Virus genome (UHGV): UHGV-0163620
Length of the DNA stretch: 20,711 nt
Reading direction: 5' to 3' (one strand)
Source: a virus
In this document: positions 1,422 through 20,493 of the stretch, in pieces
Layout of the letters: each line of letters starts with the position of its first letter
Numbering within the stretch: the stretch's first letter is position 1
Notes under the pieces: model-generated
The model's database searches: none
The model's input: only the letters and a program-made list of their open reading frames with translations
What the model was told of the DNA's origin: nothing
Program-made: the position numbers and the translations under genes

Positions 1422-1859
1422 TTAATTCAGGCATTGCGTCTTGATGTATTCCTGCAAGTAGTTAACCTGCGCAGTTATCCTGTCGATCCCACTTCGGAGA
1501 CGGTAATAATTGAGTTCAGCATCTGCTGTAAGTCTTGGGCTTTCTCCATTGCCCATGCCGCTGGCTCCGGTCGTTGACTTTGCACAGGTGGCGGCGACTT
1601 GCAGGCGCTTACGCCCAGCAGAAACATCAGCACGGAGGCTTTCGATAGTCGCGTTAGCATCAGCAAGCTCCTTTGTATATCTGGCATCGAGTTCCGCTAC
1701 GTCACGTTGACGCTTCTGCATATCAGCGATTGTGGATGTGGCTTTATCGCGCTGCTCTTTGTAGGCGATGGCGTTATCACGGTAATGATTAACAGCCCAC
1801 GACAGGCAGACGATGATGCAAATAACCAGAGCGGAGATAATCGCGGTTACCCTGCTCAT
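1422..1859 (-). CDS. Rz: i-spanin Rz (lysis)
   Basis: Begins [26 protein letters not shown], near-identical to lambda Rz N-terminus; ATG at 1859 overlaps endolysin stop (ATGA); ORF-track start at 1871 is a GTG. Confidence 0.85.
1475..1660 (-). CDS. Rz1: o-spanin Rz1 lipoprotein, embedded in +1 frame within Rz
   Basis: Embedded ORF with signal peptide [20 protein letters not shown] (lipobox VSAC) and proline-rich mature part; start taken at internal Met. Confidence 0.7.
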
Positions 1860-2356
1860 TGTTGACCCCACAAACAGACTTCACGCTCAATCTCACGACG
1901 AGTCATCAGGCCTTTCCATTGCTTACCGCCAGCAGATATCCAGCGACGTAGCTGATCACATGCGCCTTTGATATCGCCCTGGTTTATTTTGCGAAGAAGC
2001 GTCGATGTTCTGAAATTACCAGCACCCACGTTGTAAACGAACGAGTAAAGAGCGCCGCGCGTTGTTTCCGGTATATCGACTTTGATGTACGGGTTAATTT
2101 GTCTGGCGACAGTGGCAAGGTCTTTATTCAGGAGAGCTTTGCATTCTGCTTCGGTATACGTTTTACCTAGCATGATGTCTTTTCCAGTGTGTCCATAACA
2201 TACAGTCCATACGCCAACAATATCTTTGTATGGTATGTAACTGACACCTTCCAGACCATCGTTACCACTTGGGCCAGTGATGAGCATAGACGCTATGGCA
2301 ATAGCCCCGCCACCAATAGCAGCTGTGACAGCTTTGCGTAATGATGACTGCATCAT
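1856..2356 (-). CDS. R: SAR endolysin (T4-lysozyme-like, glycoside hydrolase family 24), phage 21 R type
   Basis: N-terminal signal-anchor-release segment [16 protein letters not shown]; catalytic triad spacing E-9-D-6-T in [18 protein letters not shown]; 166 aa. Confidence 0.9.
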
Positions 2357-2625
2357 ATTTCCTTCGGTGCTCTCTTCCCCAGCTCTCCAATAACCATCGC
2401 TGTAGCAGAAAGATTATTGGTATTAGTTTTATCCAATATGTCCTGCAATATCTTCGTGCGCTTCATCTGCTCGCGTTTATTGAGCCGGTATGTAAGCACA
2501 CCGAGGATAATGCTGAACGCGACACCGATAATGAAGCCCCAATCCTGCAATGACAGGCTGGCAAAGAACGCAGCAAGACCAGCGCTACCATAAGATGCAC
2601 TGCTGTATCGTTCATCCATCTTCAT
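2353..2625 (-). CDS. S: class II holin (pinholin-like) with dual-start motif MKM
   Basis: Two predicted TM helices; Met1-Lys-Met3 start as in holin/antiholin pairs; GAGG Shine-Dalgarno upstream; stop overlaps endolysin start. Confidence 0.75.
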
Positions 2626-2720
2626 ATCTCTTACCTCGCAATAGTTGCTGAGGTTTCGGCTTGGAAACTATATGGCGAAAATAACCCCTACCAAAAACGG
2701 CAGGGGAATATATTCTCCAG

Positions 2721-3797
2721 TTACTCAAATAACTTTTTCACTTCATCAACTGTCTGAAGATAACGTTCGCCCTCAATCTCAATACCTATTGCCTGACGTC
2801 CTAACTTCAGCGCAGCTTTAATAGTTGAGCCTGATCCCATAAAGAAATCGGCAACGATATCTCCGGGGCGTGAACTACTCTTTATAATATGTTCCATCAT
2901 CGCTGCAGGTTTTTCACATGGGTGCTTGCCAGGATAATATTGCACAGGAGGAAACTCCCATACATCGGTATAAGGTACATCAGCAGTAACATGAAATGGA
3001 CGGCGTAAATTTTCATACTGAGCCTTCAAATCATCATACTGCTTCTTTACTTCCTCATAATGCAATTTCAGATCGCTATAACGCTTTTCATGTTCTGAAT
3101 AATCAACATTAAAAGGATATGGACACGGGACACCGAGTGAATCTGCCTTCCTGCGAAATAATTCGCATAGTTTATTAAAATCAATTAATGATGGAAGCCG
3201 CCACTGCGAATAAGAAAACCAGTGTGAACACATCTGCTTTCCTGTCGCTGAATTAATGTCTGCGGCTGATATATCTAACTGACGGCGAGCCAGCGAAAAA
3301 GCATCAATTAGTGGAGAAAAAATATTTTTTCTTAAATCTGCACATTTTGAAGCATAACCTGACTGACCTTTAGCATAACCTGACGCGCCGTAATGCTCTG
3401 CAAATAATATTCTTTCAGTAGCAGGAAAATAAGCCCTTAAACTTTCTTTATGACAACCGCGCCACATACCACTGGGTTTAGCCCAAATGATATGGTTCAG
3501 AACATTGAAACGGTCGCGAGTTAATAATTCAATTTTTGACGCAAGGCGAGAGCCGGTAAACATATACAGGCTGCCATTAGGGGCCAATATCCGCCAAAAT
3601 TCTGCCAAAAATTCGTCAATCCACCCCAAAAAGTCAGCATCGCTATCCCACTGGTTATCCCATGCGTTAGCCTTTACGCCGAAGTATGGTGGGTCTGTTG
3701 CAATCAAATTGACCGAGTTATCAGGGATGGTTTTGATAAATTGCAGAGAATCTGCGCAAACGAGTTGTGCGCCATGAATATTAGTGGTTTTGAACAT
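2721..3797 (-). CDS. DNA methyltransferase, beta-class amino-methyltransferase (N6-adenine or N4-cytosine), orphan
   Basis: DPPY catalytic motif near N-terminus (LIATDPPYF) followed by C-terminal AdoMet motif FxGxG (DFFMGSGST); start set at second Met (3797) by family N-terminus pattern, alternative ATG at 3842. Confidence 0.8.
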   Translation of the reverse strand: MFKTTNIHGAQLVCADSLQFIKTIPDNSVNLIATDPPYFGVKANAWDNQWDSDADFLGWIDEFLAEFWRILAPNGSLYMFTGSRLASKIELLTRDRFNVLNHIIWAKPSGMWRGCHKESLRAYFPATERILFAEHYGASGYAKGQSGYASKCADLRKNIFSPLIDAFSLARRQLDISAADINSATGKQMCSHWFSYSQWRLPSLIDFNKLCELFRRKADSLGVPCPYPFNVDYSEHEKRYSDLKLHYEEVKKQYDDLKAQYENLRRPFHVTADVPYTDVWEFPPVQYYPGKHPCEKPAAMMEHIIKSSSRPGDIVADFFMGSGSTIKAALKLGRQAIGIEIEGERYLQTVDEVKKLFE

Positions 3798-3932
3798 AGC
3801 TATTATTTTTTTGCCTGGGTAAGCTAACCCGGCGATGCGCATCGCGGGTGGGCTTTAGGTTCAGCCTATAGCTCTGGCATGGGTTGACCGCAGGACAAGC
3901 TGCAACTTGTCCTGCGCCCACTTTTCAGGCAC

Positions 3933-3954
3933 AAAAAAACCGCCATAAAGGCGG
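3933..3954 (-). terminator. intrinsic terminator in late-operon leader (tR'-like)
   Basis: On minus strand: 5-bp GC stem CCGCC/GGCGG (3940-3954), 5-nt loop, followed by a run of seven U (plus-strand A run 3933-3939). Confidence 0.6.
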
Positions 3955-3993
3955 CTTGTTGGCTGTTGGGTACAAAAAACCCAACTTAACAAA

Positions 3994-4022
3994 ACAATAA
4001 CTAAAAACCGTCATTTTGCCAA
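3994..4022 (-). promoter_or_regulatory. candidate late promoter (PR'-like)
   Basis: Minus-strand -35 TTGGCA (4022-4017), 16-17 nt spacer, -10 TTATTG/TATTGT; sits about 35-50 nt upstream of the leader terminator; judged by eye only. Confidence 0.3.
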
Positions 4023-4042
4023 GCTTTTTCGTTTTTGTGCTG

Positions 4043-4058
4043 TGCGACCGTGGTCGCA
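4043..4058. other. sopC-like 16-bp inverted repeat TGCGACCGTGGTCGCA, copy 2 (extends to a 24-bp palindrome 4039-4062)
   Basis: Exact reverse complement of copy 1; lies about 21 bp upstream of the candidate late promoter -35. Confidence 0.6.
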
Positions 4059-4064
4059 CAGCTT

Positions 4065-4292
4065 TTAGAAAGTTGCCTGCTTATATTCATCGGTCAAAGA
4101 ATATCGACCAGATCCGCTACGCTTTGCAACCCCAAAACAGATCATCTGTTCGATGATAAATTCAACGGCAGCTTGACTCAAAAAACAGGCTTCGCTTAAC
4201 TCTTTCAGGGAAATGCGTGGGTATCCACGCATAACACATTCCACACTCAGGGCCGCTTCAGTCATATTTCCACGAATTTCATTAATATTCAT
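4065..4292 (-). CDS. small hypothetical protein, 75 aa, possible winged-helix DNA-binding fold
   Basis: ORF with GAGAGG Shine-Dalgarno before the ATG at 4292; helix-turn-helix-like segment; function not recognised. Confidence 0.5.
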   Translation of the reverse strand: MNINEIRGNMTEAALSVECVMRGYPRISLKELSEACFLSQAAVEFIIEQMICFGVAKRSGSGRYSLTDEYKQATF

Positions 4293-4305
4293 AACGCCTC
4301 TCTAA

Positions 4306-4527
4306 TCAATCTTGAAACTGGAAATCAACATCAGCCATAAAGCGGTTCAACTCAGCCAGTTTTGGCCCCATAGTCCCAACTAAGCGACCAGCCAGTCGGT
4401 CTGTTAGGTTGGTACTGTTGAAACCATATTCCTTTTCGAAACGTTCAACCTTCTGCCACAACTCATACAGTTCGTTAGCTATCTCCGCAACGTCGTCGCG
4501 CATTTTTTCGTTACCTTGATAATTCAT
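4306..4527 (-). CDS. small hypothetical protein, 73 aa
   Basis: Start moved to the ATG at 4527, which has a GGAGG Shine-Dalgarno (rc of 4533-4537) 5 nt upstream. Confidence 0.5.
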   Translation of the reverse strand: MNYQGNEKMRDDVAEIANELYELWQKVERFEKEYGFNSTNLTDRLAGRLVGTMGPKLAELNRFMADVDFQFQD

Positions 4528-4692
4528 AATATCCTCCAAATTCATATAGTTAGTGGGTTATTACCCCTCAATGACACGAACTGTAACTCTGCCAAACGAA
4601 CACATCCAGTGTTATTTTTCGCTTTTTAGTGAAATTTTTAATTTGCGTTGTTTTCTTGTTTTGGTGTATTTTATGGATATGGAGGCTATAAT

Positions 4693-5004
4693 ATGTTTAA
4701 CGTGATAACCCACCCTGCAGCACTGGATGAACTGCTTGAACTACCAGATGATTTGCGAGGTCGCATGACCAGATTAATTGAGCGACTGGAGAAAGAAGGC
4801 AACAAACTGAAGATGCCCCATAGCCGTGTAATAGGTGGAGGGCTTTTTGAACTACGAGTAGGGGATAAAAACATCGCAAGAACGCTGTACGCCTACGCGA
4901 CTGGTAACGAAATTTATCTATTGCATGCATTTGTAAAAAAGACACAGAAAACACCGGTGAAGGCTATCGAAATCGCCAGAACTCGCCTGAAGGAGATGAA
5001 CTGA
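4693..5004 (+). CDS. RelE/ParE-superfamily toxin, HigB-2 / Gp49-like (DUF891)
   Basis: About 103 aa with family-typical fold signature; toxin-first order; GGAGG 7 nt upstream of the ATG at 4693; stop overlaps the next start (TGATG). Confidence 0.7.
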   Translation: MFNVITHPAALDELLELPDDLRGRMTRLIERLEKEGNKLKMPHSRVIGGGLFELRVGDKNIARTLYAYATGNEIYLLHAFVKKTQKTPVKAIEIARTRLKEMN

Positions 5005-5291
5005 TGAAAGCGAAAGGCATCCCGTTTAACGAAGTAAAAGAAAAACTCCTCAACACTCCAGAAGCCGTCAAAGGATATGAAGAGGCCGACAAAGAGCTGG
5101 AGATGGTCGAAATGTTATACGAAATGAGGGAAAGAGCAGGTTTAACGAAATCAGCTCTGGCTGAACGAATGGGGTTGCGACCGTCAGCCATCAGCCGCCT
5201 GGAAAGCAATCCTTTAGGGGCAAGTATGAAAACTTTGGCTAAATATGCTCATGCCTGCGGCGCAACCATCGATATTCGCGCTGTTTATTAA
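5004..5291 (+). CDS. HTH XRE-family antitoxin (HigA-2-like)
   Basis: 95 aa with C-terminal helix-turn-helix; translationally coupled to the upstream toxin. Confidence 0.7.
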   Translation: MKAKGIPFNEVKEKLLNTPEAVKGYEEADKELEMVEMLYEMRERAGLTKSALAERMGLRPSAISRLESNPLGASMKTLAKYAHACGATIDIRAVY

Positions 5292-9026: not shown

Positions 9027-9230
9027 CTATACCCAAATTTTCTGTTGATATGTTCTGGATGGTTTTGGCGTTCTTTCTGATTCAGGTAAATGAACATAAA
9101 CGCAATATCCATCACCTAAAAAATCAGAACGAACAACCAGAACTTTCTTACCACGCCGCCGATAAGTATCTGAAAGACGCTCTGCTTCATCATGCGTCAT
9201 CGGCCCCTGCTTAAATGGCGTTATTTTCAT
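9027..9230 (-). CDS. small hypothetical protein, 67 aa
   Basis: ATG at 9230; ORF-track start at 9254 is a GTG lying inside the palindrome at 9238-9253. Confidence 0.4.
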   Translation of the reverse strand: MKITPFKQGPMTHDEAERLSDTYRRRGKKVLVVRSDFLGDGYCVYVHLPESERTPKPSRTYQQKIWV

Positions 9231-9531
9231 TTTCTTGTGCGACCACGGTCGCACCCTCTCTGATTTCCAAGTAACGCTTAATCCAAAGATTTTCTATATG
9301 CTTATTACCTGGCTGATTTGATAAATACCAATCGGCAATTACAGACTGCTTATTACTATCTGGTCGTGTCCTGTAACCACAAGTTGGACACCAGATAACA
9401 TATTCATTTCTTACCCCCGAATACCTTAATTCTGGCTTCGACGGTTTCCTGAACATAACTTGTTTACAAAGACAGAATGGCACTTCCTGCCCGATGGCGT
9501 TTGATGATTTCACTGCGCTTCTCCGCCGCAT
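9211..9531 (-). CDS. zinc-ribbon protein, possibly Lar-like restriction alleviation family (tentative)
   Basis: CxC ... CxxC pattern (VPFCLCK ... WCPTCGYRTRP ... ADWYLSN) loosely resembling Lar/RalR small proteins as recalled from memory. Confidence 0.4.
   Translation of the reverse strand: MRRRSAVKSSNAIGQEVPFCLCKQVMFRKPSKPELRYSGVRNEYVIWCPTCGYRTRPDSNKQSVIADWYLSNQPGNKHIENLWIKRYLEIREGATVVAQENENNAI
9238..9253. other. sopC-like 16-bp inverted repeat TGCGACCACGGTCGCA, copy 3
   Basis: Identical to copy 1; 8 bp upstream of the ATG at 9230 and inside the 3' end of ORF 9211..9531. Confidence 0.6.
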
Positions 9532-10174
9532 TTAATAATGCAGTTCGATTTAAGCTCAGACATCGCGACTTAATTAAAAGCCAGCGTTCTTTATAATCTT
9601 GTCTCCAGCTATCAATAGATATATTCAGTAGAAAACTCAGATGCCTGTCCTGTTCTCTCTCATCAACTGCCTCAGCACACGTAAGTTCTGATTTAACCTG
9701 TTGTGCCGCGTAATAAATCAATTTCCGCATGGCTTTTTTCGTGGAGGCCTTCATTTTTTTAAAGCCGCCCCCCGAATGAGCAACCAGAAAATCAAGCCAT
9801 AACCACTGACAAACAATCACATCATTGTTGTAATCAGGCTTGCATCCGTAGCAATAATAAAGCCAGGCTGATTCCTCGTTATTCAACTGACCAATAGCCC
9901 TGCGCCAGCTGGCGCTCTGAAAATCAATATCAGTGAGCAACATTGATGATTGTTTAAATGTTTTCCCCTGGTGGAATCTAACCGGCTCAGCAGGAACGGA
10001 CACTTCGTATGAGTTATCATCCCCCACACTGATTGACCGGACTGGTTTATTGTTAAACCGTCCTGATCTACCGAGACGCATCTGCTCAAGCTGGACCTCC
10101 AGAATGCCACGCTGGCGATAATGAACATCAGCCAATGCCGTAGAGACGCAGCTGCGTATATACTCAAGCTCCAC
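9464..10174 (-). CDS. hypothetical protein, 236 aa, in the position of a Q-like late regulator (function unproven)
   Basis: Long ORF immediately downstream of the cro-like gene; N15 immB is recalled as cB-cro-Q; no antiterminator motif recognised; GTG start overlaps the cro-like stop. Confidence 0.45.
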   Translation of the reverse strand: MELEYIRSCVSTALADVHYRQRGILEVQLEQMRLGRSGRFNNKPVRSISVGDDNSYEVSVPAEPVRFHQGKTFKQSSMLLTDIDFQSASWRRAIGQLNNEESAWLYYCYGCKPDYNNDVIVCQWLWLDFLVAHSGGGFKKMKASTKKAMRKLIYYAAQQVKSELTCAEAVDEREQDRHLSFLLNISIDSWRQDYKERWLLIKSRCLSLNRTALLNAAEKRSEIIKRHRAGSAILSL

Positions 10175-10385
10175 GCTTACGACTCTCCTTAATCGACTGC
10201 TTTACCCGCCGAGTTGTAAAGTCACTCTTCAGCTTATAAGCAGTACGAACTTCAATATCGCTTTGCCGCAATGAAGGAATCTCTCCAGCGGTTAACCATT
10301 GGTAAACAGCTCCGGGTGTTACACCTACCCCTGCCGCTGCTTTTTCTACACTGCCAAAATGGCGAATAAGTTCTTCTGGTTTCAT
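10164..10385 (-). CDS. cro: Cro-like HTH regulator (YdaS/Cro family)
   Basis: 73 aa from the ATG at 10385; HTH segment GVGVTPGAVYQWL; divergent from the repressor gene across a region with two dyad operators. Confidence 0.7.
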   Translation of the reverse strand: MKPEELIRHFGSVEKAAAGVGVTPGAVYQWLTAGEIPSLRQSDIEVRTAYKLKSDFTTRRVKQSIKESRKRGA

Positions 10386-10412
10386 GTTGTTATTATAAAC
10401 AATAAACAACAA

Positions 10413-17017: not shown

Positions 17018-17078
17018 CACCTCGCTGCGGTAAATCCCGCAGTCGGGACTTCGCAATCCTGGCAAAACGAAGCGCACA

Positions 17079-17100
17079 ACACGCGCCAGCGTGTTTTTTT
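17079..17100 (+). terminator. intrinsic terminator/attenuator in the immA-like leader
   Basis: 6-bp stem ACACGC/GCGTGT with 4-nt loop followed by seven T (17094-17100); about 77 nt downstream of the candidate start site. Confidence 0.55.
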
Positions 17101-17131
17101 GTGTGTACAGACCTGCGCATATCCGAATTAT

Positions 17132-17211
17132 GGTGGCTCAGGTGGGGCTGACTTCGGTCGGGCCGGTTTCTTCGTTTACCGGTATTGCGAACCCCGCCTG
17201 GGCTACCACCA
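17132..17211 (+). ncRNA. tRNA-like structured RNA, candidate c4/CA-type antisense regulator (RNase P substrate-like)
   Basis: 5' GGUGGCU pairs with 3' GGCUACC (7 bp, two G-U) followed by ACCA; internal GAC-UUCG-GUC and CCGGU-N10-ACCGG stem-loops; two blocks complementary to 17221-17240 downstream. Confidence 0.4.
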
Positions 17212-17266
17212 ATAAAGAGATTCGCAACTCTGGTGGTAGCACGACCAATAAAACGGAGTGCATACC

Positions 17267-18603: not shown

Positions 18604-20493
18604 TTAGCCGAAATATGTCAGCCATGCTAACTGCATTGCTGACATGGGGCTGTTTGCACTGCCTGACCACGCATAATTCTGGCCATTATAATGAAACTCG
18701 ACAACGTATGAGCCATCACCAATATTTCTCACTGGCTTAAATACCGGCTTAGATACAGGCGAAGAAGGTGCAGGCGGTTGCTGTTCTTCTACGCTCTCTT
18801 CCTCTTCCTCTATCTCAATTTCGTCGTCATCCAGATCGTCATCCTCTGATAATTCATCCGCCAGTTCAGGTATTGCTTCCAGTTCTTCTTCGTCAGGCAT
18901 AACGATTTCTGGAGTATCTATTTTCAGTTGCCATTGTCCGTTTTCGCCAACAAATTGCCCCAGAGCATCAGCAGCAAATTCCAGGTATCGACTAATCATT
19001 GTAGGGCTAAATTTGAATGCTCTTAGAGTGCTGTTCGTGATTTTTATAGAGGGGTCCTGCTCTACCAGCTGCTTAACTGTGTTATGCAGACGAACTCCGG
19101 CATCACCTCTGGCGAATCCTGGCATTTCTTCATCAAGCTGCTGCAATGCTTCCAGCCTGGTATTTTCGTTTCCAGTATTTGGCCTCCATGTCTTTGAGAA
19201 GTTGGCCAGCTTGAATTGCTTATAGTGTAATTGAGTGTTTTCATCGTCATGGCCTAAAATTTCCATAAAGAAAACATCCTCATCTACGTTTTTCCAACGA
19301 GGATCTACGCGGAAAAACATTTCATACGCAATACGGGCATAAATAGCACGACTATCTTTATAAACACGGCGGTCATCTTTGAAAAATGATTTAACCCACG
19401 GGTTAAAAGCCTTTGCTAATATGGCATTAATCCGTCCGTTTTCAGAGCGTGTGTCGTTATCTCCATAACCTTTAACGACATCATCAAAATCAGATGCTGC
19501 TGGGCATGAGCGAAGTACATTTATTAAATAAACAAATGTTTTTGCTTCGCATAATGTATATATTTTTCTGGTTATATCATCAGAAGTTCTTTTTTTTGCT
19601 TGGCCTAAAAAATCAACGGTATACTTACCAGAAACAGTAAATGTACCTTGATACATAATCTCAATCATTCGTCTTCCTGACAATGCAGCAAGTGCAAATG
19701 CCAAAGGAGCCATACCTGAACGAGTGTTTAGATTATTTAATGTAGCAGGGCTATTTATAATATCGTAAATAGCTTGCATATATTTAGGGTAATCAATGAC
19801 CACCACGTTACGTTTCTTATTGTGCAGAACGTCTGCCCATCGTTGCTGGATAGATGCGCGTTCGGCAGGGCTTAGTTGAAGATGATAGAGAATCTCATGG
19901 TTAACTTTTAGCTGATTCAACTCCTCAAGTAAGGCAGATCCTTGCTGTAGTAATTTATATAAATAATCGCGCTTATCTTTCCAGTTATCGCTAGTTAAAT
20001 CAGAAATGGCGAATTGCCACTCTTTATATTTATTTGATAATTTTAATAACTTATTATGACTTTTGTTATCGCCAATTCTGATATTAGATAAATCTTCTGA
20101 TAGAGGGAGAATTAATTTTAATTTTGCCTGTAAAGCTGACATTCTCTGGCGAATATCGGCAGCAGGTAGAGAAAGCCATGACAATAGCTCCTCATTATAT
20201 AAAGGATACTTTTCAGATAGGCGATGTATATTTTTTTCAAAGCTATGATGAAGTTTATCATCAAACCGTTTTCTGGCCCTGCTCATATAGGCATTGAATG
20301 TGTTGGCTGTAATTCTTTTTTCTAATCCTTTCCCCCTAAACTTTCGCTTGTCATTAAATAATGCATTTTTAAATTTTAATGCAACAGCCTTTATTTTTTT
20401 TGTTTTCTCCCCTTGAGGACGGTCAGAGTTATCTATTGACTCAACATCGCTAACAAGTGAGTTTATTAATTCACCGATTTTTACTTTGCTCAT
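18604..20493 (-). CDS. telN: protelomerase (telomere resolvase), TelN-like
   Basis: 629 aa; N-terminus MSKVKIGELIN and long stretches match phage N15 TelN as recalled; acidic C-terminal region; AGGAGAGG Shine-Dalgarno; adjacent palindromic target site. Confidence 0.95.
   Translation of the reverse strand: MSKVKIGELINSLVSDVESIDNSDRPQGEKTKKIKAVALKFKNALFNDKRKFRGKGLEKRITANTFNAYMSRARKRFDDKLHHSFEKNIHRLSEKYPLYNEELLSWLSLPAADIRQRMSALQAKLKLILPLSEDLSNIRIGDNKSHNKLLKLSNKYKEWQFAISDLTSDNWKDKRDYLYKLLQQGSALLEELNQLKVNHEILYHLQLSPAERASIQQRWADVLHNKKRNVVVIDYPKYMQAIYDIINSPATLNNLNTRSGMAPLAFALAALSGRRMIEIMYQGTFTVSGKYTVDFLGQAKKRTSDDITRKIYTLCEAKTFVYLINVLRSCPAASDFDDVVKGYGDNDTRSENGRINAILAKAFNPWVKSFFKDDRRVYKDSRAIYARIAYEMFFRVDPRWKNVDEDVFFMEILGHDDENTQLHYKQFKLANFSKTWRPNTGNENTRLEALQQLDEEMPGFARGDAGVRLHNTVKQLVEQDPSIKITNSTLRAFKFSPTMISRYLEFAADALGQFVGENGQWQLKIDTPEIVMPDEEELEAIPELADELSEDDDLDDDEIEIEEEEESVEEQQPPAPSSPVSKPVFKPVRNIGDGSYVVEFHYNGQNYAWSGSANSPMSAMQLAWLTYFG

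Follow-up and report, generated by a model that had tools for sequence, protein, structure and literature searches.

Gene content of the locus

The DNA analyzed here, referred to as the window, is a 20,711-nt stretch of the virus genome UHGV-0163620 (all coordinates are window positions), in which an orphan DNA methyltransferase gene, preceded by a conserved structured leader RNA, lies upstream of the lysis genes of an N15-like phage. The methyltransferase region is ~98% identical at the DNA level to the Escherichia phages YDC107_1 (genus Ravinvirus) and PhiR46_1; a protelomerase with four TelK domains (Pfam) is encoded at 18604..20493; and the locus was detected in 16 of 5,426 complete Escherichia coli genomes, in a plasmid record every time (the 12 listed are 36-75 kb). 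Therefore, the source element is an N15-like linear phage-plasmid of the Ravinvirus type; a plasmid lifestyle of the phage had already been named in the first-pass annotation. The open reading frames (ORFs) of the window include a 1327-aa primase/replicase-like protein, a cI-like repressor, Cro (10164..10412, minus strand) and the Q antiterminator. The methyltransferase gene and its principal motifs are:

2721..3797, minus strand: methyltransferase coding sequence, 358 aa (PF01555; orthologue of N15 gp52; placed by alignment in the M.EcoGII clade)
3684..3695, minus strand: motif IV, DPPY, predicted catalytic, aa 35-38 (aligned with the DPPY of M.RsrI and M.EcoGII)
2829..2843, minus strand: motif I, FMGSG, predicted to bind S-adenosylmethionine, aa 319-323 (aligned with M.RsrI and M.EcoGII)

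The mechanically called ORF spans 2721..3842 (373 aa). All homologue alignments begin at the ATG at 3797, and the in-frame upstream ATG at 3842 is not kept in phiKO2 or PY54; therefore, the product is taken to be 358 aa long. The match to Pfam PF01555 (N6_N4_Mtase) scores 159.8 bits (E=1.2e-46), the curated cut-off of the family being 26.7. Motif IV precedes motif I, hence the beta-class order, and DPPY, HPCEKP (aa 292-297) and FMGSG align residue for residue with M.RsrI (E=1e-22). By these alignments, the protein is an intact beta-class amino-methyltransferase, of the N6-adenine type judging from its relatives; the assignment to the beta class by the first-pass annotation is thus upheld, and the motifs, which it had warned might prove degenerate on proper alignment, are intact against both M.RsrI and M.EcoGII.

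Pfam and PADLOC scans of the other window ORFs, which detect recognizable families only, revealed no restriction endonuclease. The gene neighbors are gp51, a small winged helix-turn-helix protein, and the holin; no recognizable endonuclease adjoins the gene, as one would in a type II restriction-modification system. The methyltransferase is an orphan, without a cognate endonuclease in the window, in agreement with the earlier remark that no restriction partner lies nearby.

N15 gp52, phiKO2 gp52 and PY54 gp60 are orthologous putative adenine methylases of linear phage-plasmids, separated from the window protein by allelic divergence only. The GenBank coding sequence of N15 gene 52 begins at an internal methionine (284 aa, without DPPY); the ORF itself is open for 362 aa and starts with MLKTTQ, like the window protein (N15 41387-42475; 4001-5089 of the N15 locus that we extracted).

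The N15-type methyltransferases fall within the M.EcoGII clade

The window protein is 99.4% identical to the annotated DNA methylases of YDC107_1 and PhiR46_1, 83.7% to N15 gp52, 62% to phiKO2 gp52 and 59% to PY54 gp60. Full-length identity of 55-60% extends to the methylases of SfV, phiP27, many Stx2 phages, and Vibrio and Aeromonas phages, and to that of 1720a-02, named a close relative of M.EcoGII by Murray et al. (PMC5778455). With M.EcoGII itself (sequence from Table S1 of PMC11551740), the alignment is collinear, with 56% identity over 358/349 residues (E=1e-142). The identity amounts to 65% in the N-terminal catalytic half, 45% in the target-recognition domain, which carries an insertion of ~9 aa relative to M.EcoGII, 45% in the charged linker and 68% in the C-terminal half. 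Identity to the reconstructed ancestors of the clade is higher, 61% for SUPREM/Anc284 and 69% for Anc250; all expressed reconstructed ancestors were active on generic DNA and RNA (PMC11551740). The 56% identity to M.EcoGII, together with the higher identity to the clade ancestors, places the N15-type enzymes inside the M.EcoGII clade.

M.EcoGII and M.EcoGI of E. coli O104:H4 prophages (PMC5778455) are likewise prophage-borne, beta-class orphans of ~350 aa. AlphaFold models of the M.EcoGII clade show a homodimer with a four-helix helix-turn-helix target-recognition domain (PMC11551740), and the alignment suggests that the window protein has the same architecture: a split Rossmann domain, a helical target-recognition domain and a charged linker. 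The solved beta-class structures align with the two catalytic halves only (E=1e-22 to 3e-15). Thus, the catalytic and SAM-binding halves of the site-specific enzymes M.RsrI, CcrM and M.MboIIA have counterparts in the window protein, whereas its central ~135 aa, comprising the target-recognition domain and the linker, do not. NCBIfam scores are far under the YhdJ and CcrM cut-offs. The differences from M.EcoGII are the 44% of residues that are not shared and the host element, here a linear plasmid-prophage.

M.EcoGII modifies adenines irrespective of the surrounding sequence. It is silent in lysogens and deleterious when expressed, and its presumed activation at induction would allow the progeny to escape restriction (PMC5778455). 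A review groups it with Mu Mom as a 'Trojan Horse' protective modification (PMC12707154). Mu Mom, whose translation is activated by Com, and its substitutes of the Hia5/Hin1523 family (PMC3299994) follow the same logic, that is, promiscuous adenine modification that is silent in the lysogen, expressed late and protective of the progeny, but neither is of the beta class: Mom has an acyltransferase fold, and Hia5/Hin1523, which we considered as homologues and rejected, are Dam-related (PMC3299994). The region 3798..4064 contains no Com-like, cysteine-rich small ORF, so that the window lacks the Com-Mom operon arrangement. Our literature search found no accessible data on the activity of the PY54 or N15 methylase.

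Given the position in the clade, the enzyme most likely methylates adenine with little or no sequence specificity. The chief competitor, which we consider unlikely although it is the strongest of the alternatives, is a conventional site-specific N6-adenine methyltransferase that protects against one restriction specificity or mimics one host motif. The diverged target-recognition domain and its insertion fit such an enzyme, as does the similar predicted fold of M.PflMI, the nearest characterized site-specific relative (PMC11551740); the top PADLOC model is a generic 'Type II methyltransferase', and some copies are named 'site-specific DNA-methyltransferase' in RefSeq. However, M.PflMI is only ~27% identical to M.EcoGII (PMC11551740), compared to 56% for the window protein; the charged helical linker absent from M.PflMI is present in the window protein (YDDLKAQYENLRRPF); and Anc250, to which the window protein is closest among the ancestors compared, belongs to the M.EcoGII lineage and was active on generic DNA and RNA (PMC11551740).

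A putative late promoter and terminator precede the methyltransferase

The features surrounding the gene, in the order of transcription, are:

9464..10174, minus strand: Q antiterminator (PF06323, E=4e-84), presumed activator of the late promoter
4065..4292, minus strand: gp51-like small winged-helix gene that accompanies M.EcoGII-type methyltransferases (also SfV orf47, 3157-3351 of the SfV locus)
4041..4060, no strand: perfect palindrome tgtgcgaccacggtcgcaca (the phiKO2 counterpart is annotated as a putative plasmid partition site)
3994..4022, minus strand: putative late promoter, -35 TTGGCA (4022-4017), 17-nt spacer, -10 TATTGT (3999-3994) (motif scan; conserved in N15, phiKO2 and PY54)
3980..3988, minus strand: TAAGTT-GGG, a -10-like element and G run just 3' of the promoter (invariant block TAAGTTGG)
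3931..3957, minus strand: predicted intrinsic terminator, GCCGCC/GGCGG stem followed by T7, a putative tR' analogue (annotated in N15 and phiKO2)
2685..2706, minus strand: terminator-like hairpin, 3' of the methyltransferase stop codon and 5' of the holin gene (motif scan)
2353..2625, minus strand: holin (weak holin Pfam matches; annotated as holin in PhiR46_1)
1856..2356, minus strand: endolysin, phage lysozyme (PF00959, E=4.5e-46)
1422..1871, minus strand: Rz spanin (PF03245, E=8e-37)

Downstream of the gp51-like gene, which ends at 4065, the minus strand runs through the palindrome, the promoter, TAAGTT-GGG, a small hairpin and the GC-rich terminator. All these blocks are kept in N15, phiKO2 and PY54 despite divergence of the proteins to 60% identity, and the neighborhoods are alike throughout: gp51, palindrome, putative late promoter, terminator, methylase, terminator, and holin, lysozyme and Rz genes. 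The GenBank records of N15 and phiKO2 annotate a promoter (-35/-10) and a terminator here, with the wording 'putative late promoter' in phiKO2, as well as a further stem-loop after gene 52; SfV has an equivalent of the latter.

The methyltransferase gene is the first ORF behind the promoter and terminator and is followed on the same strand by the holin, endolysin and Rz genes, with terminator-like hairpins on both of its sides within the late operon. The earlier description of the gene as the first of the lysis operon accordingly holds for its position, upstream of the lysis cassette; the operon in question is better seen as the Q-dependent late operon in its entirety. The homologous genes of SfV and 1720a-02 come immediately after Q, the late promoter and the terminator, with S-R-Rz (SfV) or stx2 (1720a-02) on their 3' side, and are thus placed between Q and the late genes, whereas Q is 5.6 kb away in the window. 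Across 86 related loci, the methyltransferase is almost always located upstream of the lysis genes on the same strand, and most of these loci show the order methyltransferase, terminator, holin/lysozyme/Rz.

The layout is that of the lambda pR'-6S RNA-tR' segment and of StxS (PMC7547250): a constitutive-type promoter, a pause element with a G run, an immediate terminator, and Q for read-on. Lambda pR' reads TTGACT-17-TAAATT, then six bases, then AACGAT-GGG, and TAAGTT-GGG is plausibly the analogue of this pause-inducing element. The promoter and the immediate terminator should yield a two-hairpin RNA of ~55 nt with a U tail (about 3931-3987, minus strand), which by its position would be the analogue of the lambda 6S RNA and of the StxS RNA of Stx phages. 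The window differs from the lambda and StxS arrangement in the short length of this RNA, ~55 nt, and in the three-way-junction RNA that lies 3' of the terminator. In Rfam, the predicted short RNA shows weak, sub-threshold similarities only (AgrB, 27 bits; isrK, 14 bits). The promoter and terminator anatomy supports late, Q-dependent expression of the methyltransferase.

A conserved three-way-junction RNA in the late leader

The stretch between the terminator and the AUG comprises two parts:

3843..3930, minus strand: predicted three-way-junction leader RNA (covariance-model match, 28.4 bits, E=1.7e-4)
3798..3848, minus strand: 3' part of the leader with hairpin P4 (about 3848-3828) and a second pairing (folding)

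The leader is 130 nt long, and its conservation goes well beyond the needs of a spacer. Helix P1 pairs GUGGGC (3921-3916) with GCCCAC (3853-3848), the consensus across the set being (G/A)UGGGC with GCCCA(C/U); P2 (3915-3906 with 3899-3890) is a hairpin of 10-12 bp; and P3, an irregular hairpin, forms the third arm of the junction. The junction strands are conserved as well, with GAAA before P1, CCAU between P2 and P3, and AACC-AG before the 3' strand of P1. Two hairpins (P4 and P5) follow the junction; UAGCU (3826-3822) can pair with AGCUA (3801-3797), and in the N15 group, this last pairing takes in the first base of the start codon. A Shine-Dalgarno sequence is absent upstream of the AUG in every group examined.

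A covariance model built from 12 SfV-like sequences only matched 78 times in 82 motif-bearing sources, never more than once per source, and not at all in 12 control loci that fit the raw pattern by chance. The junction lies at 3868-3955 in the N15 locus (L003), 2865-2952 in L004, 2866-2952 in L005 and 3363-3453 in the SfV locus (L006). Among 71 distinct sequences, the fraction of paired cells was 85.8%, compared to 71.4 ± 0.5% in shuffled alignments and 28-43% with the partners slid, and both sides had changed at 22 of 26 pairs (14.6 in shuffles), counts that lean towards the model because the alignment itself was fitted to it. MAFFT alignments were dropped for pair counting because their helix registers were inconsistent, and the covariance-model alignment was used instead; RNAalifold run on this same alignment also produced P1 and P2. 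The window leader folds with z = -4.2 relative to shuffled sequences.

Rfam 15 has no gathering-level match in the leader region (a scan of the whole window yielded only C4 and isrK, at 17.0-17.2 kb), and permissive scans returned chance-level matches only (E<=5 for the window leader; E<=1 for phiKO2, SfV and two other loci). A hammerhead or other ribozyme was rejected because the lengths and sequences of the junction strands do not fit by inspection and the Rfam ribozyme models are silent. An alternative closing helix, UGGG with the proximal CCCAU, which RNAalifold proposed on the MAFFT alignment, was not taken as the native fold because it overlaps the 5' strand of P3, where one position forms three different Watson-Crick pairs across the groups; it could be a folding intermediate. 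No description of such a late-leader RNA was found in our literature search.

Diverse first genes follow the leader RNA

The same leader pattern is found 5' of the homologous methyltransferases of SfV, Stx2 phages, and Vibrio and Aeromonas phages, at a nearly fixed distance of 131-140 nt from the start of the pattern to the next start codon. When IMG/VR was scanned with the pattern, an M.EcoGII-type gene lay ~130 nt downstream in 79 of the 120 stretches returned. The junction also precedes a C5-cytosine methyltransferase (PF00145), including that of Pectobacterium phage ZF40, where it is downstream of the Q-like gene. In one phage (L175, 6243-7905), the genes behind the leader encode a ParB_N-domain protein and a TET-associated glycosyltransferase; this pair of DNA-hypermodification genes sits in the methyltransferase slot. 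Vibrio/Aeromonas-type phages have a Com-like zinc ribbon and then the methyltransferase, and in some loci, the leader stands directly before the holin-endolysin-spanin cassette. Lambda (45016-45101; L209 1217-1302), HK022 (L207 1527-1612) and HK620 contain a weaker relative that has kept P2 and P3 and lost P1; lambda and HK022 hold the junction RNA in this degenerate form only.

Nearly all copies of the motif have a GC-rich hairpin, often a full terminator, directly on their 5' side. The leader RNA is thus not specific to the methyltransferase, and the first gene behind it varies. Numerous lambdoid and N15-like phages, from Enterobacterales, Vibrio and Aeromonas, have it at the head of their late operons. 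It is therefore a marker of where the antiterminated late transcript begins, and between it and the lysis genes, DNA-modification genes seem to have been inserted.

A scan of species-representative genomes gave 17 of 100 pattern matches that passed the covariance model, 14 of them in Enterobacterales; most of the 120 rows from the genome-wide pattern scan are chance matches in unrelated phyla. The other three, all strong matches, are in 'Chryseobacterium sp. 18061' (L277) and 'Martelella alba' (L259 and L300, contigs of 1.5-2 kb), and are probably contaminating contigs.

Several further observations concern these loci. A Com-like zinc-ribbon ORF (PF10122) lies between the leader and the methyltransferase in L038 (about 2831-2941), L072, L080 and the phiARM81ld record; in the Com-bearing relatives, the methyltransferase start is preceded by GGAGG inside a hairpin, an echo of Mu com-mom. 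In lambda and HK022, the degenerate motif is located ~85 nt upstream of S, and the lambda P2 with its U run looks terminator-like. The gp51/orf47 gene (phrog_331) is present in 132 of the 210 loci examined and in none of the 19 loci checked in which a C5 methyltransferase, the ParB_N/glycosyltransferase pair, Com or a holin stands behind the leader; its product may be a partner or regulator of the methyltransferase. Lambda orf-64 was tried as a relative of SfV orf47, and no similarity was found.

Probable late expression and protection of progeny DNA

From these features, we infer Q dependence, late timing, lack of specificity and an anti-restriction benefit, and we regard the resulting explanation as likely as a whole: an orphan M.EcoGII-clade enzyme, expressed late and dependent on Q, would methylate adenines almost without specificity and thereby help the phage to evade restriction. 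Under this scheme, RNA polymerase starting at the late promoter would encounter the immediate terminator and get to the methyltransferase gene only once Q has made it terminator-resistant. Expression would fall late in lytic growth, on one transcript with the holin, endolysin and Rz genes that probably extends into the head and tail genes. The enzyme would then methylate the adenines of the replicating phage DNA, most likely with little or no specificity, and the DNA that the progeny virions bring into a new host would be protected beforehand against many restriction systems sensitive to N6-methyladenine (m6A). While the element persists as a plasmid-prophage, the flanking terminator-like hairpins would silence the gene, and the structured leader devoid of a Shine-Dalgarno sequence probably adds to the silencing, which would be needed because blanket methylation is toxic. 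The first-pass annotation had offered either anti-restriction or host mimicry; the former coincides with the proposal made in the literature for M.EcoGII, whereas, for a protein placed in the M.EcoGII clade, near-blanket adenine methylation is more probable than imitation of a single host motif.

Several points weigh against this explanation. The chief uncertainty is specificity, which is unreadable from sequence, with a target-recognition domain 45% identical to that of M.EcoGII and bearing the ~9-aa insertion; the lack of site preference of Anc250 was not mapped directly (PMC11551740), and both the activity and the specificity of the enzyme of this element are deduced from its sequence. On the transcriptional side, the promoter scan returned no more sites than it did in shuffled sequence, so that the promoter and the terminators are consensus-level predictions. 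The upstream genes (gp50, gp51 and back to Q) are on the same strand, and some early read-through is possible. A promoter-like TTGGTA-16-TATAGT overlaps the methyltransferase-holin hairpin, and the lysis genes could have an additional transcription start there.

It is also conceivable, if improbable, that the main role of the enzyme is other than restriction evasion, namely, global late m6A for packaging or replication marking, host shutdown, or RNA methylation. RNA and DNA:RNA hybrids are further substrates of M.EcoGII (PMC5778455), P1 requires Dmt for packaging (PMC12707154), and very different phages have retained the gene as the first of their late operons. However, no methylation-dependent cos or pac is known for N15-like phages, and the same slot in related phages holds a C5 methyltransferase or the ParB_N and TET-associated glycosyltransferase pair; with such varied DNA-modification genes in one slot, the common denominator is modification of the progeny DNA, which points to an anti-restriction logic.

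Still less probable is that the methyltransferase is the last gene of a delayed-early operon, reached by read-through from cro and Q, with the 'late promoter' driving the short RNA only. From cro through the methyltransferase, every gene is on the minus strand except for one toxin-antitoxin pair, and the promoter call is, as said, at the consensus level, but a strong intrinsic terminator with T7 separates gp51 from the methyltransferase; the promoter, -10-like element, G run and terminator match lambda pR' and are conserved in N15, phiKO2 and PY54; and in SfV and 1720a-02, the gene comes directly behind Q, pR' and its terminator. N4-cytosine methylation is highly improbable: PF01555 covers both the N4-cytosine and N6-adenine chemistries, and N4-cytosine enzymes occur among the weaker matches in the Protein Data Bank, but the motif is DPPY, not SPPY or SPPF, and the best relatives (M.EcoGII at 56%, M.RsrI, CcrM and MboIIA) are all N6-adenine enzymes.

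For the leader RNA, we considered cis control of the translation or stability of the first late gene, a terminator-resistant transcription link, and a processed small RNA. The leader may allow a toxic first late gene to be expressed only under Q-modified transcription. It could do so by controlling translation, by affecting the stability of the transcript or by a folding path set by transcription kinetics. A joint reading, in which an undescribed cis-acting three-way-junction RNA gates the methyltransferase, which in turn methylates progeny adenines without sequence specificity, is tentative, and we hold it with less than even confidence.

Other features of the element

The toxin-antitoxin pair that breaks the minus-strand array between Q and the methyltransferase consists of a Gp49/RelE-like toxin and a helix-turn-helix antitoxin (4648-5291, plus strand). 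A 106-aa ORF just 3' of Q (9211-9531, minus strand) has a weak, sub-threshold Pfam match to Lar, a restriction alleviation protein (21 bits; the cut-off is 28.6), and could be a second, early anti-restriction function. On the 3' side of the lysis genes (148-1041 and 1069-1380 region, minus strand) lies an ORF of the DUF4406 or nucleoside 2-deoxyribosyltransferase-like type, followed by a 297-aa ORF (phrog_2571) in the slot that in N15 is occupied by the Dcm-type C5 methyltransferase gene 58, to which it is unrelated. A second copy of the GC-rich palindrome (TGCGACCGTGGTCGCA, 1033-1048) is located just 5' of the 148-1041 ORF, the copy at 4041-4060 being just upstream of the late promoter; the phiKO2 counterparts of both are annotated as putative partition sites. 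The gathering-level Rfam matches, isrK (17024-17099) and C4 antisense RNA (17126-17213; plus strand), adjoin Ash-family and Bro-N ORFs, an immunity region of the antirepressor type.

Implications

The interpretation of the gene is not new, given that N15 gene 52 and phiKO2 gp52 are already so annotated in GenBank, and the finding is in this respect ordinary: an already annotated member of an already characterized family. It confirms that N15-type phage-plasmids carry an M.EcoGII-clade enzyme heading the late operon. The virion DNA of N15-type elements may therefore be heavily m6A-modified, which would mean resistance to many restriction enzymes, sensitivity to m6A-dependent type IV systems, and odd base-calling in nanopore or single-molecule real-time (SMRT) sequencing. 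Chromatin-footprinting tools would also gain, in N15 gp52, a diverged second enzyme of natural origin.

The leader RNA is the less ordinary result, being conserved and apparently uncatalogued: a strongly covarying RNA, absent from Rfam, at the start of the late transcript in SfV, Stx2 phages, N15, phiKO2, PY54 and ZF40. It offers a testable handle on how lethal late genes, including non-specific methylases, holins and Shiga-toxin-linked regions, are kept silent despite a constitutive late promoter.

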